Program-made: the position numbers and the translations under genes
In this document: one piece after another, positions 3,575 through 30,793 of the stretch
Numbering within the stretch: position 1 is the first letter of the stretch
Layout of the letters: each line of letters starts with the position of its first letter
Notes under the pieces: model-generated
Told to the model about the DNA's origin: nothing
Databases searched by the model: none
What the model saw: the letters and a program-made list of their open reading frames with translations, nothing else
Origin: Alphaproteobacteria bacterium
Lineage (GTDB): Bacteria; Pseudomonadota; Alphaproteobacteria; UBA828
Length of the DNA: 64,000 bases
NCBI GenBank assembly: GCA_965237415.1
Contig: CBDEFM010000001.1
Coordinates: forward strand, 224,001-288,000
Direction of reading: 5' to 3'

Positions 3575-4497
3575 CCGTTGAGCGCGAACGCCGCACGCCG
3601 GCGCGCGCATGGGGGCTGCTCGGGCGCGGCTCGGTGATCGCGAGCCCCTATGTGTGGCTGCTCTTCTTCTTCCTCGTTCCCTTCGCGATCGTGCTCAAGA
3701 TCAGCGTGGCCGAGATCCAACTCGCCATCCCGCCCTATACGCCGCTCTTCGCCTGGCCCGAGGGCGGCTCCTTCGAGCTCTTCGCGGTCGGCGACAACTA
3801 CCGGCTCCTGATCGAGGACAGCCTCTATATCCGCGCCTACGCGAACAGCCTCAAGATCGCGGCGCTCTCGACAGCGTTCGCGCTGCTGGTGGGCTTCCCC
3901 ATCGCCTACGCCATGGCCCGCGCGCCCCGCGCCTGGCAGGCGACCCTGGTGATGCTGATGATCCTGCCCTTCTGGACCTCCTTCCTGATCCGGGTCTACG
4001 CCTGGATCGGGATCCTGAAGAACGAGGGGATGCTGAACGGGGTGCTGCGCTGGATCGGGGTGATCGACGAGCCGCTGATCATCCTCAACACCGACATCGC
4101 GGTCTATATCGGCATCGTTTACTCGTACCTGCCGTTCATGGTCCTGCCGCTCTACGCCAACCTGGTGCGGATGGACCGCTCGCTGCTGGAGGCCGCGGCC
4201 GACCTCGGCTGCCGCCCGGCCGGCGCCTTCTGGAAAATCACCGTGCCGCTGGCGAGACCCGGCATCGTCGCCGGGTGCTTCCTGGTGTTCATCCCGGCCG
4301 TCGGCGAATTCGTGATCCCCGACCTGCTCGGCGGCTCCGGCACGCTGATGATCGGGCGGATGCTCTGGACCGAGTTCTTCAGAAACCGCGACTGGCCCGT
4401 GGCCTCTGCGGTCGCCGTGATCCTGCTTCTGGTGCTGATCGTGCCCATCGTGCTGTTCCAGCGCCACCAGCAGTCCCAGCGGGAGCGGGAGGCCTGA
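3571..4497 (+). CDS. potH: Polyamine ABC transporter permease
   Basis: LPFWTSFLIRVYAW, EAAADLG loop; ATGA overlap with potG. Confidence 0.9.
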   Translation: MTVERERRTPARAWGLLGRGSVIASPYVWLLFFFLVPFAIVLKISVAEIQLAIPPYTPLFAWPEGGSFELFAVGDNYRLLIEDSLYIRAYANSLKIAALSTAFALLVGFPIAYAMARAPRAWQATLVMLMILPFWTSFLIRVYAWIGILKNEGMLNGVLRWIGVIDEPLIILNTDIAVYIGIVYSYLPFMVLPLYANLVRMDRSLLEAAADLGCRPAGAFWKITVPLARPGIVAGCFLVFIPAVGEFVIPDLLGGSGTLMIGRMLWTEFFRNRDWPVASAVAVILLLVLIVPIVLFQRHQQSQREREA

Positions 4498-5309
4498 TGC
4501 GGCGGGGCTTGAGCGGGATCAATCTGGCGGCGCTCACACTTGGCTTCGCCTTCCTCTACATCCCGATCCTCCTGCTTATCATCTATTCCTTCAACGAATC
4601 GAAGCTCGTGACCGTGTGGGCGGGGTTCTCCACCAAGTGGTACGTCGCGATGGTGGAGAACACGCGGTTGCTCGACGCCGCCTGGATGACGCTGAAGGTC
4701 GCCGTGGTCTCGTCCACCGTGGCGCTGGTGCTGGGCACTCTCGCGGGGCTCGCGCTCGCCCGGCTCGGGCGCTTCCCCGGCCGCACGCTCTTCTCGGGCA
4801 TGGTGTACGCGCCGCTGGTCATGCCCGAGGTCATCACCGGCCTTTCGATGCTGCTGCTCTTCGTCGCGCTCTCCTGGTCGCGCGGCTACTGGACCGTGAC
4901 GGTGGCCCACATCACCTTCTCGATGGCCTATGTCGCGGTGGTCGTGCAGTCGCGGCTGCTCACCATGGACCGCTCGCTGGAAGAAGCCGCGATGGACCTG
5001 GGCGCGCCGCCGGTCAAGACCTTCTTCGCCGTCACGCTGCCGATCATCAGCCCGGCGTTGGTTGCCGGCTGGCTCCTGGCGTTCACGCTTTCGCTCGACG
5101 ATCTGGTGATCGCGTCGTTCACCAGCGGCCCCGGCTCGACGACGCTGCCGATGAAGATTTACTCGCAGGTGCGCTTGGGCGTGACACCGGAGATCAACGC
5201 GGTCTCCACGGTGCTGGTGGGCGTCGTCTCCATCGGCGTGATCGCCGCGAGCCTCATCAACAAGCGCGCCATGGTCATCCGCGAGCGGGAGGCACAGACC
5301 GCCGCATAG
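4497..5309 (+). CDS. potI: Polyamine ABC transporter permease
   Basis: True start is the ATG at 4497 (TGATG overlap) within the 3609..5309 ORF; PLVMPEVITG, EEAAMDLGA, SLDD. Confidence 0.9.
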   Translation: MRRGLSGINLAALTLGFAFLYIPILLLIIYSFNESKLVTVWAGFSTKWYVAMVENTRLLDAAWMTLKVAVVSSTVALVLGTLAGLALARLGRFPGRTLFSGMVYAPLVMPEVITGLSMLLLFVALSWSRGYWTVTVAHITFSMAYVAVVVQSRLLTMDRSLEEAAMDLGAPPVKTFFAVTLPIISPALVAGWLLAFTLSLDDLVIASFTSGPGSTTLPMKIYSQVRLGVTPEINAVSTVLVGVVSIGVIAASLINKRAMVIREREAQTAA

Positions 5310-22689: not shown

Positions 22690-23063
22690 TCAGCCCTTCA
22701 CTGCGCCGAAGGTGAGGCCGCGAACCAGGTAGCGTTTCACAAAGAAAATCAGGACAAGCACCGGCACGCTCTGGAAGATGCAGGCGGCCGCGACCTGCGG
22801 CCACAGACCCTTGGGGTGCCCCACCAGAGACGGGATCATCGCCGTGAACGTGCGGTCCTCGCCTCCCGTGAGGACCAACGCGAACAAAAGCTCGTTCCAG
22901 GAGAATATCAGGACGAAAATGATAACCGCCACCAGTCCCGTGTATGTCATCGGCAACGCGATTTGAAAGAACACGCGAAACGGACCCGCACCGTCGAGAA
23001 AGGCTGCCTCCTCCACCTCCCGAGGGACGTCGTCGAAGAATGATTTCATCATCCAGACCAATA
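22690..23063 (-). pseudogene. 5'-truncated carbohydrate ABC permease (MalG-like)
   Basis: EEAAFLDG, SWNEL, GLTFGAVKG; cut exactly at the IS21 end (23064). Confidence 0.85.
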
Positions 23064-23200
23064 TGTCAACGGCGGCGAGATTATGTACCGGCGCGGCGGC
23101 GCAAAGTTGTGCCACGGGCTGGGTGGCAGCTTGTCCCTGTAGATCCTATGAGGCGACTCGGCGAGCGGCGCTACGGTGCCGCCGGCCAGGAATCCTCAAC

Positions 23201-24394
23201 ATGAGACACGAGATGCCCCCAAGTAGCGACATCGTCGCGTCGGTCGGCGCGGAGCACAACACGCTGTACGTCGCGATCGAGATAAGCCGGAAGAGTTGGG
23301 TGGTTGGGATCAAGAGCCCGGCGAGTGAGCGGATCGGCCTGCACTCGCTTGCGGCAGCGGACGTCGTAGGTCTTCTGATCGAGCATCAGCAGACCAGGGC
23401 CGAACGCGCGCTCGGCCGTGAAGTGCGTGTTCTGTGCTGTTACGAAGCGGGCTATGAGGGGTTCTGGCTGGCGCGCTGGCTGGACCGAACGATGTCTGTC
23501 GAGACGGTCGTGCTCGATCCTGCGAGCCTTTTGGTGAACCGAAAGGCGAAGCAGCGCAAGACGGATCGGATCGACGCCAGGAAGATGGTGCGCGCGCTGC
23601 TGGCGCACGACCGGGGCGACGCGGCGGTGCTCAGCCGGGTGCGGATACCGAGCGTTGAGGAGGAAGACCGCAAGCGATTGCTCCGGGAGCGCCGGCGCCT
23701 GGTGAAGGAGCGGACATCGCTGACCAACGCGGTCAAAGGGCTCCTGAAGCTGCCCGGCATCTTCGACCTGCAGCCCCGCGCCAAGGGCTTCGAGGCCCGG
23801 TTCGCCGAAGTGAGGACCGCATACGGATCGACGTTCCCGCCGTGGGCCCGGCAGGAGATCCTGCGCCTTGCGGAGCGGTTGTCCCTCGTGGAGCGCCAGA
23901 TCGCGCAGGTCGAGGCCGAGCGCGACGCGATCGTCCGCCAGGGCGAGGCTCTCGCGGTGCCGGTGGCGCCCGAGGGAAGCGATGCGCAGGCGGCGGCGAG
24001 AATGGCGACGCTGACCCGGTTGAAGGGGATCGGCGAGAACGACGCGACCCTGCTGACGCACGAGATCTTCTATCGCGGGTTCCGCAACCGCCGGGAGCTC
24101 GCGAGCTGGGTTGGTATAACGCCAACCCCTTGGGCGAGCGGGGACACGCAACGCGACCAGGGGATCAGCCGTGACGGTCCAGCCTGGATCCGGGCTCAGC
24201 TCGTTCAAATGGCGTGGCGCTGGTTGCGCCATCAGCCAGACAGCGCGCTTAGCAAATGGTTCGAAGACCGAACCGCGGGAGGCCGGGGACGAATCCGTCG
24301 TGTGATGGTCGTAGCGCTCGCCCGCAAGCTGCTCATCGCTCTCTGGCGGTTCTGTGAGACCGGTCTCGTGCCGACAGGCGCCAGGCTCGCCTGA
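23201..24394 (+). CDS. IS110 family recombinase/transposase
   Basis: AIEIS, YEAG, KTDRID (DEDD-type RuvC with first acidic residue E); GIG..A, GITPTPWASG, ALARKL. Confidence 0.92.
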   Translation: MRHEMPPSSDIVASVGAEHNTLYVAIEISRKSWVVGIKSPASERIGLHSLAAADVVGLLIEHQQTRAERALGREVRVLCCYEAGYEGFWLARWLDRTMSVETVVLDPASLLVNRKAKQRKTDRIDARKMVRALLAHDRGDAAVLSRVRIPSVEEEDRKRLLRERRRLVKERTSLTNAVKGLLKLPGIFDLQPRAKGFEARFAEVRTAYGSTFPPWARQEILRLAERLSLVERQIAQVEAERDAIVRQGEALAVPVAPEGSDAQAAARMATLTRLKGIGENDATLLTHEIFYRGFRNRRELASWVGITPTPWASGDTQRDQGISRDGPAWIRAQLVQMAWRWLRHQPDSALSKWFEDRTAGGRGRIRRVMVVALARKLLIALWRFCETGLVPTGARLA

Positions 24395-24587
24395 TCCTGA
24401 GACCGCACTGTTCCAGTCCGGCCGGACGCGGCCGGCGCTGGGCCGGGTGGTGAGTGGCCGACCGTGGACAGGGCAGAAAGACGCCGCCCCGTAGAAGGGT
24501 CCCGCCTCCGGAACGCTGTGCCCGCAGCAAGCGGGATTGGGGGACGGATCCGGCGCATCGGCGCCGGAAACCGCCCGAATAAAAGTT
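24395..24587 (+). ncRNA. Predicted bridge/seek RNA region of the IS110 (continues at 25622-~25747 after the IS1595 insertion)
   Basis: CCGTGGACAGGG (24462-73) is the reverse complement of the reconstructed target; ATAAAAGT (24579-86) matches the donor junction; hairpin ccggcgc-atcg-gcgccgg. RNA ends unknown. Confidence 0.7.
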
Positions 24588-25613
24588 GGCTCAATTCGCG
24601 AATCATATGCGCTACCTCGTCACGGCGGCGGCGAGGCAGGCGCGATCATTGGCGCCGGGGGCGAGGCCGACGAGGTGGAACCAGCTCAGATAGTTGTCCA
24701 GATAGCGGGTGGCGACCCCGCGGCGAGGTCGCAGGAAGTCCTTCCTCCGGCTGTGGCGGCTGTTCACCGTCTGCACATGCAGATCGCCCCGAACCCGTTC
24801 CCCAATCGACCGGTTGAGTGCTTCGTGGCTCACCCCGAGCGCGGCGGCGCACGGCGGGTAGCTCGCGCCGCCGTCGGAGACCAGCAGGGCGTCCCTGGCG
24901 AGCACCGGATCGAGGGCGGCCGTGAGGGCCGTCGCGTCAACCCTGGGCAGCACCGCGCTGAACGTCGTCCCGCTCCGGTCCGCTGCCATGAGAACCGGCA
25001 CCTGCTCGCGCGAGAGGCCACGCTTCTTCGCCTTGCCGCCCCGCCGCCGTGCCTTGCGCCCCAGCTTGCGCGCCCCCTTCCGGCTCTCCAGCACATAGGT
25101 CTCGTCCGCTTCCACGATCCCCTTGAGCACCCCCGAACGATGACGGGCCGCCGCCAGAAACCGATGACGCCAGCGGAACGCCGTGCTCACCGCCACATCG
25201 CAGCGCTCTGCCGACGCCTTCACCGTCTCCCCCTCCGCAAGCGAGGCCCCGAACGACAGCCAGCGCTCCTTGTGGTGCAAGCCCGACAGCGGGGTGCCGG
25301 TTAGCGCGTTGAAGGTCCTGCCGCAGCCTTTGCATTGGTAGCGCCGAAGACCACGTGCCTTGCCCCGTGAAACCGCCCCCTCCCGCGCGCAATGCGGACA
25401 GCGCCGGGCCTCGTCCACAGCGAGTTCGATCGCCGCCTTCGACGCCTCGCCCGTACTCCGGCCAGACAGAACCGCCCAGTGCCTCGCGCCGCTGTGCCCG
25501 CGTCAGCCCGCTCGCCGCCGAAAGCCAGCCCTGAAAATCCTGACTATCCATGACCAAACCTCCTGAGATTCGGGCCATTCTACCAACGATGCGTACGATT
25601 TGCGAATTGAGCC
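24588..25613 (-). mobile_element. IS1595-family element
   Basis: 23-bp TIRs GGCTCAATTCGCGAATCATATGC / GGCTCAATTCGCAAATCGTACGC (3 mismatches); 8-bp TSD TAAAAGTT at 24580-87 and 25614-21. Confidence 0.92.
24612..25551 (-). pseudogene. IS1595 transposase with a +1 frameshift near 25476
   Basis: MDSQDFQGWL... in one frame joins CPHC...CKGC, VEADETY, SDG, VNSRHS in another. Confidence 0.8.
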
Positions 25614-26302
25614 TAAAAGTTGGGCATCCGCACGGTCGTGCGACCCATGCGAGAAGCGTTCCGACCCGGCAAGACGCGCCGCCGATCTGGCCAACCAAAG
25701 GAGACAAGACATGCTCGAGACATAGCGTGCATCGCACCTTGACTTCTGTTGCCTCATAAAAGTCCACGGGAGGGACCCGCGCGCGCGGGTCGACGCGCCC
25801 TGTGCGCGGCTGGCGGCGGCCCGCGCGTGGGTGGGGCCTATGGGCCCACGGGGACAAGCGGGGGGTTATTCGGACGGGCGCTGGCGTCGCGATCGGCTCT
25901 GCCTGAGCCGGTAGCTGTCTGCGTTCATCTCCAGGATATGGACATGGTGGGTGATGCGGTCGAGCAGCGCGCCGGTGAGGCGCTCGCTGGCGAAGACCGT
26001 TGTCCATTCCTGGAAGGGCAGGTTTGAGGTCACGATTGTGGCGCCGTTTTCGTAGCGCCGGCTGAAGACGTCGAACAGCAGTTCGCTTCCGGTCTGCGAG
26101 AGGGGCACGTAGCCGAGCTCGTCGACGATCAGGAGATTGACCCTGGCGAGCTGGTCCTGGAGGCGGAGGAGCCTCTTCTCGTCGCGCGCCTCGATCATCT
26201 CGTGGACCAGGTGAGAGGCGGTGGTGAAGCGCACGGAGAGGCCCTTCTGGCAGGCGGCAAGCCCGAGGGCGAGCGCGACATGCGTCTTGCCGACGCCTGA
26301 CG

Positions 26303-26773
26303 GAACAGCCACACACTGCCCGATACCAGGGCGGTCCGACGAAGATCCACTACCCCTTCCACCCCCGCACGGGCCAGCGCGTGGAAGTGGTTCGGCGCCA
26401 CCGCTTCAAGGGGACCATGATCTACGTCGTCCGCCAGCCGGATGGCACGCTGGCGCAGATACCGACCTGGATGTGCTTTCCAGACGCGGCGGCGATGACG
26501 GTGACGGATCAGCCGCGGATCGCGCTGGACGCCCTGCGCGACCTCCGTTCGGACATCGACGCTGTTCTACCATCGCCCTCCCGCATGGATTTGGGAGGGC
26601 GACATGGGAAGACAGGGAGAGCTGTTGGAACTACTGGAGCCGGGTCCGGCACTCACGCCGGCGATGCGAGGGGCGGTAATCCCGATACTGGCGGCGCTGC
26701 TGCTCGAAGCGGCAGCGAACCCGACGGAGGACATGGCGGACGGGACGGCCACGGAGAAGGAGGCGGGCGATGA
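26303..26773 (+). CDS. DUF5372 / Y4bD-like accessory protein lacking its start codon in the integrated state
   Basis: IHYPFHPRTGQRVEVVRR...DGTLAQIPTWM; frame open to the element's left end; family assignment from memory of the motif. Confidence 0.6.
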   Translation, partial: EQPHTARYQGGPTKIHYPFHPRTGQRVEVVRRHRFKGTMIYVVRQPDGTLAQIPTWMCFPDAAAMTVTDQPRIALDALRDLRSDIDAVLPSPSRMDLGGRHGKTGRAVGTTGAGSGTHAGDARGGNPDTGGAAARSGSEPDGGHGGRDGHGEGGGR

Positions 26774-26789
26774 ACAAGATCGCGCCTGA
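26604..26789 (+). CDS. Small hypothetical protein upstream of the recombinase
   Basis: RBS GGGAGG before ATG; 61 aa; overlaps the recombinase start. Confidence 0.55.
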   Translation: MGRQGELLELLEPGPALTPAMRGAVIPILAALLLEAAANPTEDMADGTATEKEAGDEQDRA

Positions 26790-28829
26790 CCATCTGGCGC
26801 GCGAGGCGGTCGTCTACATTCGGCAGTCGACGCCGGACCAGCTGCGGCACAACCACGAGAGCCGCCGTCGTCAGTACGGCCTTGCGGATCGGGCTCGCGG
26901 TCTGGGCTGGGACGAGCCCGTGATTATCGACGAGGATCTCGGCCGCTCTGGAGGCGGAACGTCGCGGCCGGGCTTCGATCGGCTGCTGCTGGCGATCTGC
27001 GAAGGGCGCGTCGGCATCGTGCTGTCGCTGGAGGCTTCGAGGCTCGCTCGAAACGGCCGCGACTGGCACACGCTGCTGGAGTTCTGCGCGCTTGTGGGCT
27101 GCCTGCTGGGCGACGAGGACGGCTTGTATGATCCTCGCCTGCCGAACGACCGTCTATTGCTGGGTATGAAGGGGACGCTGTCGGAGATGGAGCTCTCGAC
27201 GCTGCGCCAGCGCTCGCTCGAGGCGCTGCGCCTGAAGGCGTCCCGTGGCGAGCTATTCCTCAGCGTCGCGGTGGGCTACGTGAAGGTCCGATGCGACCGG
27301 ATCGCCAAGGATCCCGACCGGCGCGTGCGTGAGGCAATCGATCTCGTGTTCCGCAAGTTCGCGGAGTTCCGGAGCATCCGCCAGGTCCACCTCTGGCTGC
27401 GGCAGGAGGAAGTGCTGCTGCCGGCCGTCAGGATCGTTGGCAAGGAGCGCCATATTGTCTGGAAGCCGCCGGTCTACGGCACCGTCCACAAGCTGATGAC
27501 CAACCCCGTCTACGCCGGCGCGTACGCGTTTGGCCGGACGGAGAGCCGCGTGACCGTCGAGAACGGACGCAAGCGCGTCACGCGCGGCTTTCGCCGCGAT
27601 CGCGCGGACTGGGACGTGTTGATCCGCGATCACCACGAAGGCTACGTTTCCTGGGACGAGTACGAGAGGAACCAGCGTCTGATCGCCGACAACGCCAACT
27701 GCGGGGCTTGATGGCAAGGGGCGCCGTGCGCCGCGGCGATGCGCTGCTCGCGGGCCTGCTGCGCTGCGGACACTGCGGCCGGCGTGTGCACGTCCACTAC
27801 AGCGGCACCAAGGGGTACTGCGTCCGTTACGGCTGCCAAGGCGCGCATGTCAACCACGGCACCAGGCCGTGCATCGCCTTCGGCGGCTTGCGCGTGGATA
27901 CTGCGGTCGGCGATGCAGTGCTGCGACTGCTATCTCCGCTCGGCGTCGAAGCGGCGCTGGCCGCCATCGAGACCCGTGAGAGCGACAACGCCGAGATCCG
28001 ACGGCAGGCGGAGCTGGCGCTGACGCAGGCGCGCTACGAGGCCGATCTGGCACAGCGCCAATACGATGCCGTCGATCCAGCTAACCGCCTTGTCGCGGCC
28101 GAGCTGGAGCGACGGTGGAACGACCGGCTGGCGGATGTGCGCCGGCAGGAGGAGCGGCTCGCCGCCACTGCGGCCGCCCGTCCGGAGGCACCGTCATGCG
28201 CGGAGAAACAGCGCTTGATGGCGCTGGGCGATGATCTCTCGACGGCGTGGTCGCGCCCCGATGCCACCGCCGAGACGCGCAAGGCCATCCTGCGCGCGGT
28301 TCTGGAGGAGATCGTCGTCACGCTGGCCGATGGCTGCGTTGACCTTCTTCTCCACTGGCGTGGCGGCGACCACACGCGTCTGAGCGTGCCGCGCAACCGT
28401 AGGGGACAGCATCGCTGGGCGGCGAGCGCCGAGGTGGTCGACCTGGTTCGCGGACTGGCGAGGCAGCTGCCGGACGGCGCGATCGCGGCCACGCTCAACC
28501 GCCTCGGCAAGAAGACCGGGCGAGGCAACTCGTGGACGGAAGCGCGGGTGCGCACCTTCCGCAATAGCCGTGGCGTTGCCGTCTTCCGATCAGGCGAGAT
28601 GGCGGAGCGGGGCGAGCTGACGCTGACCGATGCCGCCGCACGGCTCGGCATCAGCAAGATGACGGTGCTGCGGTTGATTGCGGGCGGCACAATCGACGCC
28701 ACGCAGGTGTGCAAGGGAGGGCCATGGGCCATCCCGGAGGCGCTGATAGACGCCCTGTACGGCACTGACCTGCGCCAATCGCGCCCGCTAACAGCCGATC
28801 CGAACCAGGAACAGCTGGATTTTCAATAA
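26770..28829 (+). pseudogene. Large serine recombinase (resolvase + recombinase + Zn-ribbon + HTH), frameshifted near 27705
   Basis: YIRQST (catalytic Ser), D-GRSG, SRLARN, LRCGHCG, C-terminal HTH; split into ORFs 26770-27711 and 27708-28829. Confidence 0.85.
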
Positions 28830-29185
28830 CGTAGCGAGGTGTGCATTATGCACTCGGACTCGAGGGCCCGAGCAGGATCGCGTTCTCGCGCCGCTCGATC
28901 CACTCGCAGCGCGCCAACTCCAGCACCTGCGCCTTGTTCAGCGCGGGGATGGCCTTGAAGTCGAAGCTCTCGAGCTGTTTGACGACGGGGAACCTGGCCT
29001 GCCTGATGCGCCGCTCGACCAGGCGGCGCTCGCGGTCGATCATCTCCAGCTCCACCAGCCGGGCCAGGAACCGCACATGATCCAGCCCCTCGGCCGTGCA
29101 CTGGCGCGCCAGTTTCTCGTACTCGCGCAGAAAGGTCGGCAGCTTCAATCTCTTCAGGTGATGCTCGAGCAGGATGCGGGGGGCC

Positions 29186-30682
29186 TCAGCCATGGCCGGC
29201 GGCCAGCAGGGTGGCGTAATCGGCGCTACGGGTGGCGGCGACGAAGGGCTGGGGGAGGTGCGGATAGCGTGTCAGGTCGAGACGGGCCGGCCGCTTCTCG
29301 ATGCGCGCCAGCAGCAGGTGCTTGACCGCATCGAAGCCGATCACGCGCCGCTTCACCGCGTCCTGCACCGCGGCCGTCACCTGGCGCTCCGGAAAGTCCT
29401 CCAGCAGGCGCAGCACCTGGATGTATTCGCGCTTGCCGCGCGGCCCGAAGCGGGCTTCGAGGAGGCGGCGCAGCGTGTCGAAGGCCGGATCGAGCTTCCA
29501 CCCCCGCAGCGGCGCCGCCTGGTCCAGGGCGCCCGGCTTCCTCTCCAGCAACGACAGATAGTGCAGCGGGTCGTAGACGACGTCGCCGCGGACATAGGAG
29601 CGCCTATGGCGGGCGACGATCTCGGCGCCGAGCGCGATCTCGACCCGGTCGACATAGCCCTTGACCGTCACCTTCTTGTGGGCGTGCACCGCCGGCGCCG
29701 AGTAGTCCACCAGCCGGTAGCGCACCAGGGCCGTCGACGAGACCTGGCCCGGCACATGCTCGCAGGCCTCGAAGGGGACGGCGGGCAGATCGCGCAGGGC
29801 GTCGAGATCGGCGAGCAACGCCGCCGCCTGGTCGCCTGCCTCCAGCGCGTCGAGCCGCTCCAGGCAGCGCGCCATCAGCCGCTCGTTCAGGACCGACAGG
29901 TCGTGCACCTTCGGGATCGGCACCATGAACCGGCGCCGTGCCGTCTTCACCAGGGCCTCCACCTTCCCCTTGTCGTTGCCTTTGCCGGGCCGGCCGAAGC
30001 GGTCGCGGAACAGGTAGTGCGACTGAAGATGTGAGAACGCCTGCGTCCTGCGGCGCGTGCCGTCCCCCAGGATCCGCGCCACCGCAAGGGTGGTGTTGTC
30101 GTAGAGGATCGAGCGCGGAACCCCGCCGAGGAAGGCGAAGGCGCTGACATGGCCGTCGAGGAAGGCCTCGGTCGTCTCCCTCGGATAGGCCTTGACGAAC
30201 CAGACATTGGAATGGGGCAGGATCAGGCAGAAGAAGGCGACCTTCTCCCGCTGCCCCCGCAGCTCCACCACCGCCTCGCCGAAGTCGACCTGGGCATGGC
30301 CCGGCGGGTGATGCAGTGGAACGAAGGCCTCGCGCGTCGATTGCCGCCGGGAACGCACATAGTCCTTCACGATGGTATAGCCGCCGGTGAACCCGTACTC
30401 GTCCCGCAGCCGCTCGAAGATCCGGTGCGCCGTGTGGCGCTGCTTGCGCGGCACATCCGGATCCGTGTCCGCCTCCAGGATCGCGTCGACGATGCCGGTG
30501 AACCCGTCCAGCTTGGGCCGCCTGACCGGCTTCGTCCGGCGGTAGCCCGGCGGCGCCGAGTAGCTCAGCATCTTCTTCACCGTGCGACGGTCGATGCCGA
30601 ACCGACGGCCCGCCTCGTGATGGCTCAAACCCTCGTCGACAACCGCCAGTCGAACCGCCGCATAGAGCTCCACGCCGTACAT
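29186..30682 (-). CDS. istA: IS21 family transposase IstA
   Basis: N-terminal HTH, AQVDFG, ILYDN, KGKVE; start chosen at MYGVELY. Confidence 0.92.
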   Translation of the reverse strand: MYGVELYAAVRLAVVDEGLSHHEAGRRFGIDRRTVKKMLSYSAPPGYRRTKPVRRPKLDGFTGIVDAILEADTDPDVPRKQRHTAHRIFERLRDEYGFTGGYTIVKDYVRSRRQSTREAFVPLHHPPGHAQVDFGEAVVELRGQREKVAFFCLILPHSNVWFVKAYPRETTEAFLDGHVSAFAFLGGVPRSILYDNTTLAVARILGDGTRRRTQAFSHLQSHYLFRDRFGRPGKGNDKGKVEALVKTARRRFMVPIPKVHDLSVLNERLMARCLERLDALEAGDQAAALLADLDALRDLPAVPFEACEHVPGQVSSTALVRYRLVDYSAPAVHAHKKVTVKGYVDRVEIALGAEIVARHRRSYVRGDVVYDPLHYLSLLERKPGALDQAAPLRGWKLDPAFDTLRRLLEARFGPRGKREYIQVLRLLEDFPERQVTAAVQDAVKRRVIGFDAVKHLLLARIEKRPARLDLTRYPHLPQPFVAATRSADYATLLAAGHG

Positions 30683-30793
30683 CCCCCGCCCCTCGTCGCA
30701 ACCGACAAAGGACCATGGTTGGCGCATTTTTGCGCCGCCGCGACCGGACCGTCCGGTCGCTCCGCGTGGAGCATTATTCCTCCGCCGTTAACA

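Follow-up and report, generated by a model that had tools for sequence, protein, structure and literature searches.

State-dependent expression of genes of mobile elements by means of promoters is already known, and so is the splitting of archaeal integrase genes by integration. In this work, we analyzed a 64,000-nucleotide stretch of an Alphaproteobacteria bacterium genome (contig CBDEFM010000001.1, positions 224,001 to 288,000; hereafter the window), in which positions 26301..28863 are occupied by a 2563-bp, insertion sequence (IS)-like and cargo-free large serine recombinase (LSR) element carrying three genes: gene 1 (DUF5372-like), ORF2 and the LSR gene. In this case, the attachment site attP separates the translation start from the body of an accessory gene, predicted to encode a recombinase-binding protein, in a bacterial serine-recombinase element.

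Several described systems can be compared with this arrangement. In Tn4451/Tn4453, which encode the large resolvase TnpX, the circular intermediate reportedly forms a promoter for tnpX, an observation attributed to Lyras and Rood in 2000. As in Tn4451, the joined ends of an LSR element create in the circle an expression signal that is absent when the element is integrated; unlike in Tn4451, where this signal is a promoter for the recombinase, here a ribosome-binding site, a start codon and 5 codons become linked with the main part of an accessory gene. No split promoter was detected in the window element, there is no cargo, and Walker-A codons serve as the target. The archaeal integrases of the SSV1 type have attP inside the int gene, which is split on integration. 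The window element shares with them an attP within an element gene that is intact only in the circular form, but the split gene is in their case a tyrosine recombinase gene of archaeal viruses and here an accessory gene of a bacterial serine-recombinase element, from which the translation start and 5 codons alone are separated. Junction promoters are formed in circles or tandems of IS911, IS30, IS21 and IS110-type elements, and they likewise raise expression at a non-replicating circle stage; these elements use DDE/DEDD transposases and the signal that they assemble is transcriptional, whereas the item split here is a translation start.

Two further comparisons concern the protein and the target. 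The phage large serine integrases have recombination directionality factors such as phiC31 gp3 and Bxb1 gp47. The gene 1 product resembles them in being a small accessory protein and a predicted recombinase binder, but it has no sequence or fold relationship to them (no Foldseek match in the PDB at E <= 0.001), and it can be made in the circle state, the opposite of what an excision factor needs. A mycobacterial serine-integrase element of the phiRv1 type integrates into the repeated element REP13E12, and is thus also an LSR element landing in copies of another repeated or mobile sequence; the target in our case differs in being a Walker-A-coding sequence in IstB, Lon and other genes across phyla. 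Finally, ICEclc Pcirc and ICEKp1 P3'end are state-dependent promoters of integrative elements, signals near one end that drive a gene at the other end only after joining at attP, as would be the case here (PMC13023037). They differ in belonging to tyrosine-recombinase integrative and conjugative elements, in acting on the transcription of int and in leaving the coding sequence unsplit (PMC13023037).

The attachment site divides gene 1

The features of the element and of the gene that it interrupts are listed below by position in the window.

25866..26300, minus strand: istB 3' part, Walker A G-V-G-K-T onward, left flank (attL side); Pfam IstB_IS21, E 1.4e-50, positions 100-236
26299..26300, no strand: GA crossover dinucleotide at attL, common to both junctions and the rebuilt attB and seen in the empty-site contigs
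26301..26347, plus strand: P' arm of attP at the left end, 11 nt and then the anchor CACACTGC, conserved in 36 distinct left ends
26301..26347, plus strand: startless N-terminal extension of gene 1 (codons 1-15), the same stretch as the P' arm
26300..26773, plus strand: body of gene 1, DUF5372-like, startless when integrated; Pfam PF17342, alignment, AlphaFold2
26604..26789, plus strand: ORF2, 61 amino acids, with its own GGGAGGG and ATG; third-position substitutions, translated and aligned in all loci
26770..28829, plus strand: large serine recombinase; Pfam, NCBIfam TIGR01764
26770..27711 and 27708..28829, plus strand: the two halves of the recombinase in the window, owing to a 1-nt deficit at ~27701
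28830..28863, plus strand: P arm of attP at the right end, with TAG, GAGGT, a 7-nt spacer, ATG, four codons and GA; motif present in 31/31 right ends
28862-28863, plus strand: GA core at the right end
28864..29193, minus strand: istB 5' part, N-terminus to L-L-G-P, right flank (attR side); Pfam IstB_IS21, E 1.2e-20, positions 2-101

The stop codon of the recombinase (TAA, 28827-28829) is followed by GAGGT at 28836-28840 and ATG at 28848-28850, just as an earlier examination of this DNA (hereafter the sequence-only reading) had noted. At the opposite end, the DUF5372-like frame ending at 26773 extends back through 26300, and the first ATG, GTG or TTG after the upstream stop is GTG 26381, which bears out the earlier remark that the integrated gene has no start upstream of its HYPFHP motif. 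The match to DUF5372 begins precisely at this motif (IHYPFHP, residue 16). With 26.4 bits (E 7e-6) it exceeds the Pfam gathering cut-off of 25 for PF17342, though covering profile positions 1-43 of 78 alone; the nearest Atlas clusters of gene 1 are DUF5372 at 0.94. When both ends were joined by script, the frame was open for 162 codons from the right-end ATG, so that the ATG is indeed in frame with the DUF5372-like ORF across the ends. The proposed location of attP inside the accessory gene was thus found as well, with GAGGT, ATG and four codons on the right arm and the rest of gene 1 on the left arm. Because attP splits gene 1, the gene is complete only where the right end joins the left, that is, in an excised circle or a tandem copy. 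The recombinase gene ends at 28829, before the right arm, and attP does not lie within it as in the SSV1 type. ATG 26280 was rejected as a start, being in a different frame that is terminated at the junction TGA, and so was an in-frame start in the flank, none being present in the stretches of flank that were translated for each locus.

The positions of the ends on which this joint depends are well defined. The element lies antisense to an IS21 istB, within its Walker-A codons G-P-x-G-x-G-K-[ST]; the flanks are the two halves of this one gene and rebuild an IstB_IS21 protein broken at its Walker A box, where the halves meet on the istB strand as L-L-G-P / S-G-V-G-K-T. GA is the sole sequence common to attL, attR and the rebuilt attB, the 2-bp core being identical at attL and attR without target duplication. 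Contigs of three public runs carry the exact empty site (26298 joined to 28862, 2563 bases skipped, 2 letters ambiguous), which confirms the boundaries independently. At the level of sequence, integration by a 2-bp (GA) crossover into the Walker-A-coding DNA of IS21 istB is thereby shown.

Conservation of the split across the family

A scan of one genome per species gave 49 loci, from which L032, L056, L058 and L059 were dropped for partial or weak matches, the analyzed set being composed of 46 loci (the window and 45 others). Right ends were sought with a pattern that did not require an ATG. They were retained in 31 of the 46 loci (24 distinct), the remaining loci being truncated, interrupted or ended by the contig, and the ATG was present in all 31; four further matches to the pattern, in L037 and L038, fall within the recombinase gene. 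Upstream of the ATG, and always with a spacer of 7 nt, 22 of the 24 distinct right ends have AGGT and the other 2 have AGAT. Both ends were available in 27 loci, for which joints were built with the register taken from the fixed spacing of the P-loop codons. All 19 distinct joints were open over at least 100 codons, whereas the other two frames met a stop within 20 codons in 17/19 and 8/19 of them. In 23 of these 27 loci, attL and attR agree in their core dinucleotide (GA, GG or CT), and one base is lost at attR in L019. The check which the sequence-only reading had proposed, namely whether the ribosome-binding site, the ATG and the reading frame are kept across attP in homologous elements, therefore came out in its favor at every right end and every distinct joint.

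The left ends offer no comparable start. A conserved start codon was found at no position of the 36 distinct left ends, and the residue before the motif (position 16) is encoded by ATC, ATT, GTC or GTT. With five aberrant or degenerate ends (L034, L045, L053, L055 and L057) left out, the first ATG, GTG or TTG after codon 1 lies behind the invariant HYPFHPR motif in 27 of 32 distinct left ends and before it in 5. GTG 26381, which the sequence-only reading had named as the alternative normal start that would speak against its own proposal, corresponds to codon 28; the equivalent codon is GTG in just 11 and ATG in 1 of the 32, and a start there would delete the invariant residues Y18, H21, P22, R23 and G25. 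For both reasons, we rejected it as a family-wide start. Within the N-terminal extension, codons 7, 9 and 10 vary chiefly at the third position, as judged from entropy by codon position, which is a sign of coding. A single element has a 1 in 3 chance of being in frame, and the retention of the ATG, the spacing of the AGGT, the frame and its openness in relatives with gene 1 proteins only 39-86% identical goes beyond chance.

The same organization was found in four distant DUF5372-LSR elements with other targets and other cores, all of which keep the Shine-Dalgarno sequence, the ATG, the 11+2+11 geometry and the open frame:

C2:2282633..2286015 (L177), 3383 bp, same genome as the window: H2, TG core, inserted in frame in an unrelated ORF
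G191 elements, two copies: TT core; Shine-Dalgarno sequence, ATG, spacing and open frame
L201 in G155: AC core; Shine-Dalgarno sequence, ATG, spacing and open frame

Elements of the H2 type carry genes for a DUF5372 protein, a helix-turn-helix (HTH) protein and an LSR, and a second, truncated copy lies at C2:~3089782..3092115.

The gene 1 protein and its predicted partner

The gene 1 domain has 24 invariant columns in 29 aligned sequences, and variability at third codon positions is 1.39 versus 0.70 and 0.72 at first and second positions. An AlphaFold2 model of residues 1-110 reached a mean predicted local distance difference test (pLDDT) score of 76.8, with 82-93 over residues 11-90, and has the predicted fold of a small SH3/Tudor-like barrel followed by helices. 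A Foldseek search of this model against the PDB gave no match at E <= 0.001, the weak similarities being SH3/Tudor/KOW-like with a best E of 0.02.

The complex with the recombinase was modelled using the intact recombinase of L011 together with residues 1-100 of the gene 1 protein from the same locus. The model scored 0.72, against 0.00 for the best of three controls. Of 80 solved complexes, 58 attain this mark, as do 2 of 110 mismatched pairs, counts that apply here in a rough way since we supplied alignments of our own. The runs agreed in at least 85% of the contacts, the pLDDT of the partner was at least 73, and the predicted contacts join recombinase residues 332-338, 386-402 and 471-536 with gene 1 residues 20-23, 46-54 and 66-90. 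The modelling thus supports a putative binding of the gene 1 product to the recombinase.

A proposed circle-stage cofactor and its alternatives

Taken together, these results point towards gene 1 being a real recombination-state-dependent gene, with a product that would serve as a circle-stage cofactor in an IS-like family targeting Walker-A sequences, a reading to which we assign a probability of roughly 0.6. In the integrated state gene 1 would be startless and hence untranslated; after excision it would be translated, with transcription running round the circle. Such transcription can take place because there is no terminator between the recombinase stop and the ATG: neither a sigma-70-type promoter nor an intrinsic terminator was found in 26100..29000, the joint itself not having been scanned with the promoter tool. 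The gene 1 product would then bind the recombinase around its zinc ribbon and the segment that follows its coiled coil, and act at the circle stage, most likely favoring the capture of, or integration into, Walker-A sites, which would be the reverse of the role of a phage excision factor. Besides, as the gene 1 frame ends on the recombinase ATG (ATGA), its translation in the circle might be coupled to that of the recombinase and may also raise recombinase synthesis. Being makeable only after excision, the protein cannot start excision, and we infer that a circle-stage cofactor for integration or target capture is the most economical reading. Among the roles suggested in the sequence-only reading (directionality control, circle maintenance or targeting), the modelled binding to the recombinase would fit directionality control, or a cofactor, better than circle maintenance.

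If this reading is true, the element would hold a minimal self-contained means of making a protein only at the circle stage, a first role would be given to the uncharacterized DUF5372 family, and a cargo-free IS-like LSR family would be defined that recognizes Walker-A-coding sequence in many genes and phyla, mostly disabling IS21 helpers. Serine integrases with relaxed but defined target rules and small, direction-setting protein partners are of interest for genome engineering. It is tempting to go further and to speculate on a self-resetting switch, in which the capture of Walker-A sites by attP x attB recombination requires a recombinase-binding protein whose gene is assembled by excision and dismantled by integration. 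This we put forward tentatively, as a possibility that we would not expect to hold in full; if it did, integration would occur from the circle only and excision from the chromosome only, without an outside signal, and the family would be a reversed-logic counterpart of the phage directionality factors in a cargo-free serine-recombinase IS preying on IS21 helpers.

Several observations, in this paragraph and the next, weigh against the circle-stage reading. A circle or tandem junction was not found in the genome of the window or in any of the loci when searched for by regular expression. There was no circle junction in 80 metagenome loci either (at least 117 matching stretches), although the pattern was too degenerate for this search to be informative, as the matches within the loci examined had gap lengths spread over 18-30 and none of these had the gene 1 motif behind. 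A stricter junction pattern gave no match in viral contigs and in 0 of 401 genomes of the phylum. Nor did the back-joint appear in the contigs of three DNA-type runs and one RNA run, which is not evidence of absence because contigs drop rare forms. The recombination-state switch proposed by the sequence-only reading is partly supported: the split structure stands, and its operation as a switch is a proposal. In addition, a 529-nt metatranscriptome contig (window 26236..26764, with 13 differing letters that are mostly in the flank) spans a different istB flank, attL, gene 1 and most of ORF2, and the attL region may thus be transcribed while integrated, which says nothing on translation; the RNA run covers 14 of 30 bins at low depth and is too thin for a start, a strand or a junction transcript. 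The three full copies in the genome of the window, with the recombinase frameshifted, may be inert. Residues 1-10 of the modelled protein are disordered, the first five residues of gene 1 are variable, and the four codons after the right-end ATG have no clear three-base periodicity. Finally, the gene 1 frame is open over ORF2 in 31/31 loci, compared with 3/31 for the third frame, but synonymous shuffles leave this tail frame open in 69% of cases on average, so that its openness is just mildly beyond chance.

The right-end ATG lies inside an inverted repeat of attP, with GCATTATG on the right and CATACTGC on the left, each 11 nt from the core, and both the ATG and the 24-nt spacing could consequently be held by recombinase binding. 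Furthermore, since a frame that has been established is then inherited, the loci do not count as independent trials. GAGGT and ATG at the right end might just be parts of a recombinase-binding site, with gene 1 produced while integrated from a start that is non-canonical, internal or supplied by the flank (such as GTG 26381, ATC 26345 or some codon of the antisense istB flank), and the in-frame joint an inherited accident. Such an explanation would sit well with the missing circle junction, with the RNA-library contig across attL and with the invariance of CATACTGC (CAT ACT GC in the extension), third positions included. It would also agree with P0001 and P0003, two homologues from the database that start with an M of their own, two residues ahead of the motif, and with the H-type relatives, which have GTG at the position of I/V16. 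Against it, however, stand the 36 distinct left ends, where no start is conserved and position 16 reads ATC, ATT, GTC or GTT, the scarcity of GTG at codon 28 (11/32) with the invariant residues that a start there would remove, and the stretches of flank translated in frame, in which no locus has an M. The ATG is not kept by symmetry alone, because the left-arm position that mirrors it reads CAC in the window and TTA, TCA or CAC in the distant elements, which keep the ATG nonetheless, and the AGGT or AGAT, at a textbook 7 nt in 24/24 distinct right ends, is at Shine-Dalgarno distance without a mirror on the left arm. The open frame of 19/19 distinct joints, with the other frames mostly closed, likewise speaks against it, and the clade treated here is the one in which internal starts are missing altogether. 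These comparisons argue that recombinase binding would not be the whole explanation of the conserved ATG, and we consider the binding-site account somewhat unlikely.

Two other explanations grant gene 1 a different function or none. It might have no role of its own in this clade and be a leader whose translation brings ribosomes to the start of the recombinase, or a decaying remnant, as the ending of its frame on the recombinase ATG in 29/32 loci and the low complexity of its tail over ORF2, which is not conserved as protein, would suggest. This we regard as improbable in view of the invariant columns of the domain, its third-position variation at about twice that of the first and second positions, the confident fold over residues 11-90 and the modelled binding to the recombinase; in addition, an AAGGAGG of its own precedes the ATG of the recombinase by 6 nt. 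Alternatively, gene 1 might merely happen to span attP and encode a classical excision (directionality) factor, of which small amounts are produced when the element is integrated. Known directionality factors act on the zinc-ribbon and post-coiled-coil region of serine recombinases, and the predicted contact on the same region of the LSR is what would be expected from such a factor. Nevertheless, gene 1 has no start codon when integrated, and a factor that is complete only after excision cannot start it, for which reasons this possibility seems very remote to us.

Recombinase and ORF2

The recombinase has, in this order, the domains typical of an LSR: resolvase PF00239 (E 1.6e-22), recombinase PF07508 (E 3.4e-12) and zinc ribbon PF13408 (E 5.9e-9), the E-values having been taken on the two halves found in the window; its C-terminus is an excisionase-type HTH (NCBIfam TIGR01764). 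A sequence search of the recombinase against solved structures gave no match at E <= 1e-5. Intact versions of 684-689 amino acids are present in 19 loci. In the window, it is split by one missing base at ~27701 (27695..27711), as it is in the two other full copies. Copy D of the same genome has one base more at ~27701 and stays open over 688 codons, and in contigs of public runs a C is inserted behind 27701, at depths of 18/18 (X2), 24.7/24.7 (X7) and 78.5/680.9 (X1). As both copy D and the public runs have the base, the frameshift is a variant or an assembly error of this genome and not a family trait.

ORF2 overlaps the tail of gene 1 in the +1 frame and has the conserved motif LLxLxEPGP...LLLEA...DEQDR, with no Pfam or NCBIfam match. 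Between copies A and D, the substitutions in 26600-26749 are distributed by phase as 12, 3 and 1, falling at the third position of the ORF2 frame. The TGA of gene 1 overlaps the ATG of the recombinase as ATGA in 29 of 32 distinct loci, and in 2 more as GTGA. In P0002 and P0009, two homologues from the database, the DUF5372 domain seems to pass without a change of frame into sequence resembling ORF2, which may be a difference in gene calling or a frameshift. Gene 1 and ORF2 as a single protein was rejected, as they occupy two separate frames in all 31 loci checked.

Target choice and distribution of the family

The family was found in Alphaproteobacteria, Gammaproteobacteria, Vicinamibacterales, Binatia, Thermodesulfobacteriota, Dormibacterota and others. 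Where enough left flank was available, x-G-x-G-K-[ST] can be read on the opposite strand directly at the junction in 36 of 39 loci. Pfam searches with 20 flanks gave 14 IstB matches starting from profile position 101-102, 3 Lon AAA+ matches and 1 IS110 transposase, leaving 2 unmatched. As Lon and IS110 genes are also hit, the target is motif-coding DNA and not istB as such; judging from these flanks, the family inserts into Walker-A-coding DNA, almost without exception antisense, with IS21 helper genes as the most frequent site. Searches of the literature in full text turned up no paper on serine-recombinase elements with such Walker-A/IstB targeting, and a full-text search for 'DUF5372' returned none. 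The Walker A boxes of Lon-type AAA+ proteases are occupied in Vicinamibacterales (L017, L022 and L024; left flanks 4099-4998), and in L038 (4624-4995) the element interrupts an IS110-family transposase gene where it encodes PGVGKT.

The genome of the window has three full copies of the element, which differ internally at 0 to 2 positions and whose right flanks part 29 and 107 nt past the junction. Copy D, 88.7% identical to the window copy, is placed in a different istB of this genome, in which a third P-loop gene harbors a relic and two further copies are partial, the other copies occupying the same spot of three different P-loop genes. Comparison of the window copy with copy D locates the substitutions at the third codon positions of the gene 1 (from 26300), ORF2 and recombinase frames in turn. 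Two full-length DUF5372 members (82 and 75 bits) are encoded in the same genome.

Among the other loci, L047, L054 (2557 bp), L023 (2558 bp) and L036 are short metagenome contigs bounded almost exactly by the element ends and without a junction, a pattern to be expected where assembly stops at a multi-copy repeat whose flanks differ. In L051, three direct repeats of ~37 nt with spacers of ~35 nt (CRISPR-like) are found at ~+2500..+2720 from the left end, where the right end should be.

Around the interrupted istB, the window has the following genes:

23063..24394, plus strand: IS110-family transposase
24612..25418, minus strand: IS1595-family transposase
29186..30727, minus strand: istA transposase of the host IS21-family element; Pfam rve, Mu-transpos_C_2

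The first two lie to the left of the IS21 copy, and the surroundings at 23063..25418 are an IS-rich island.

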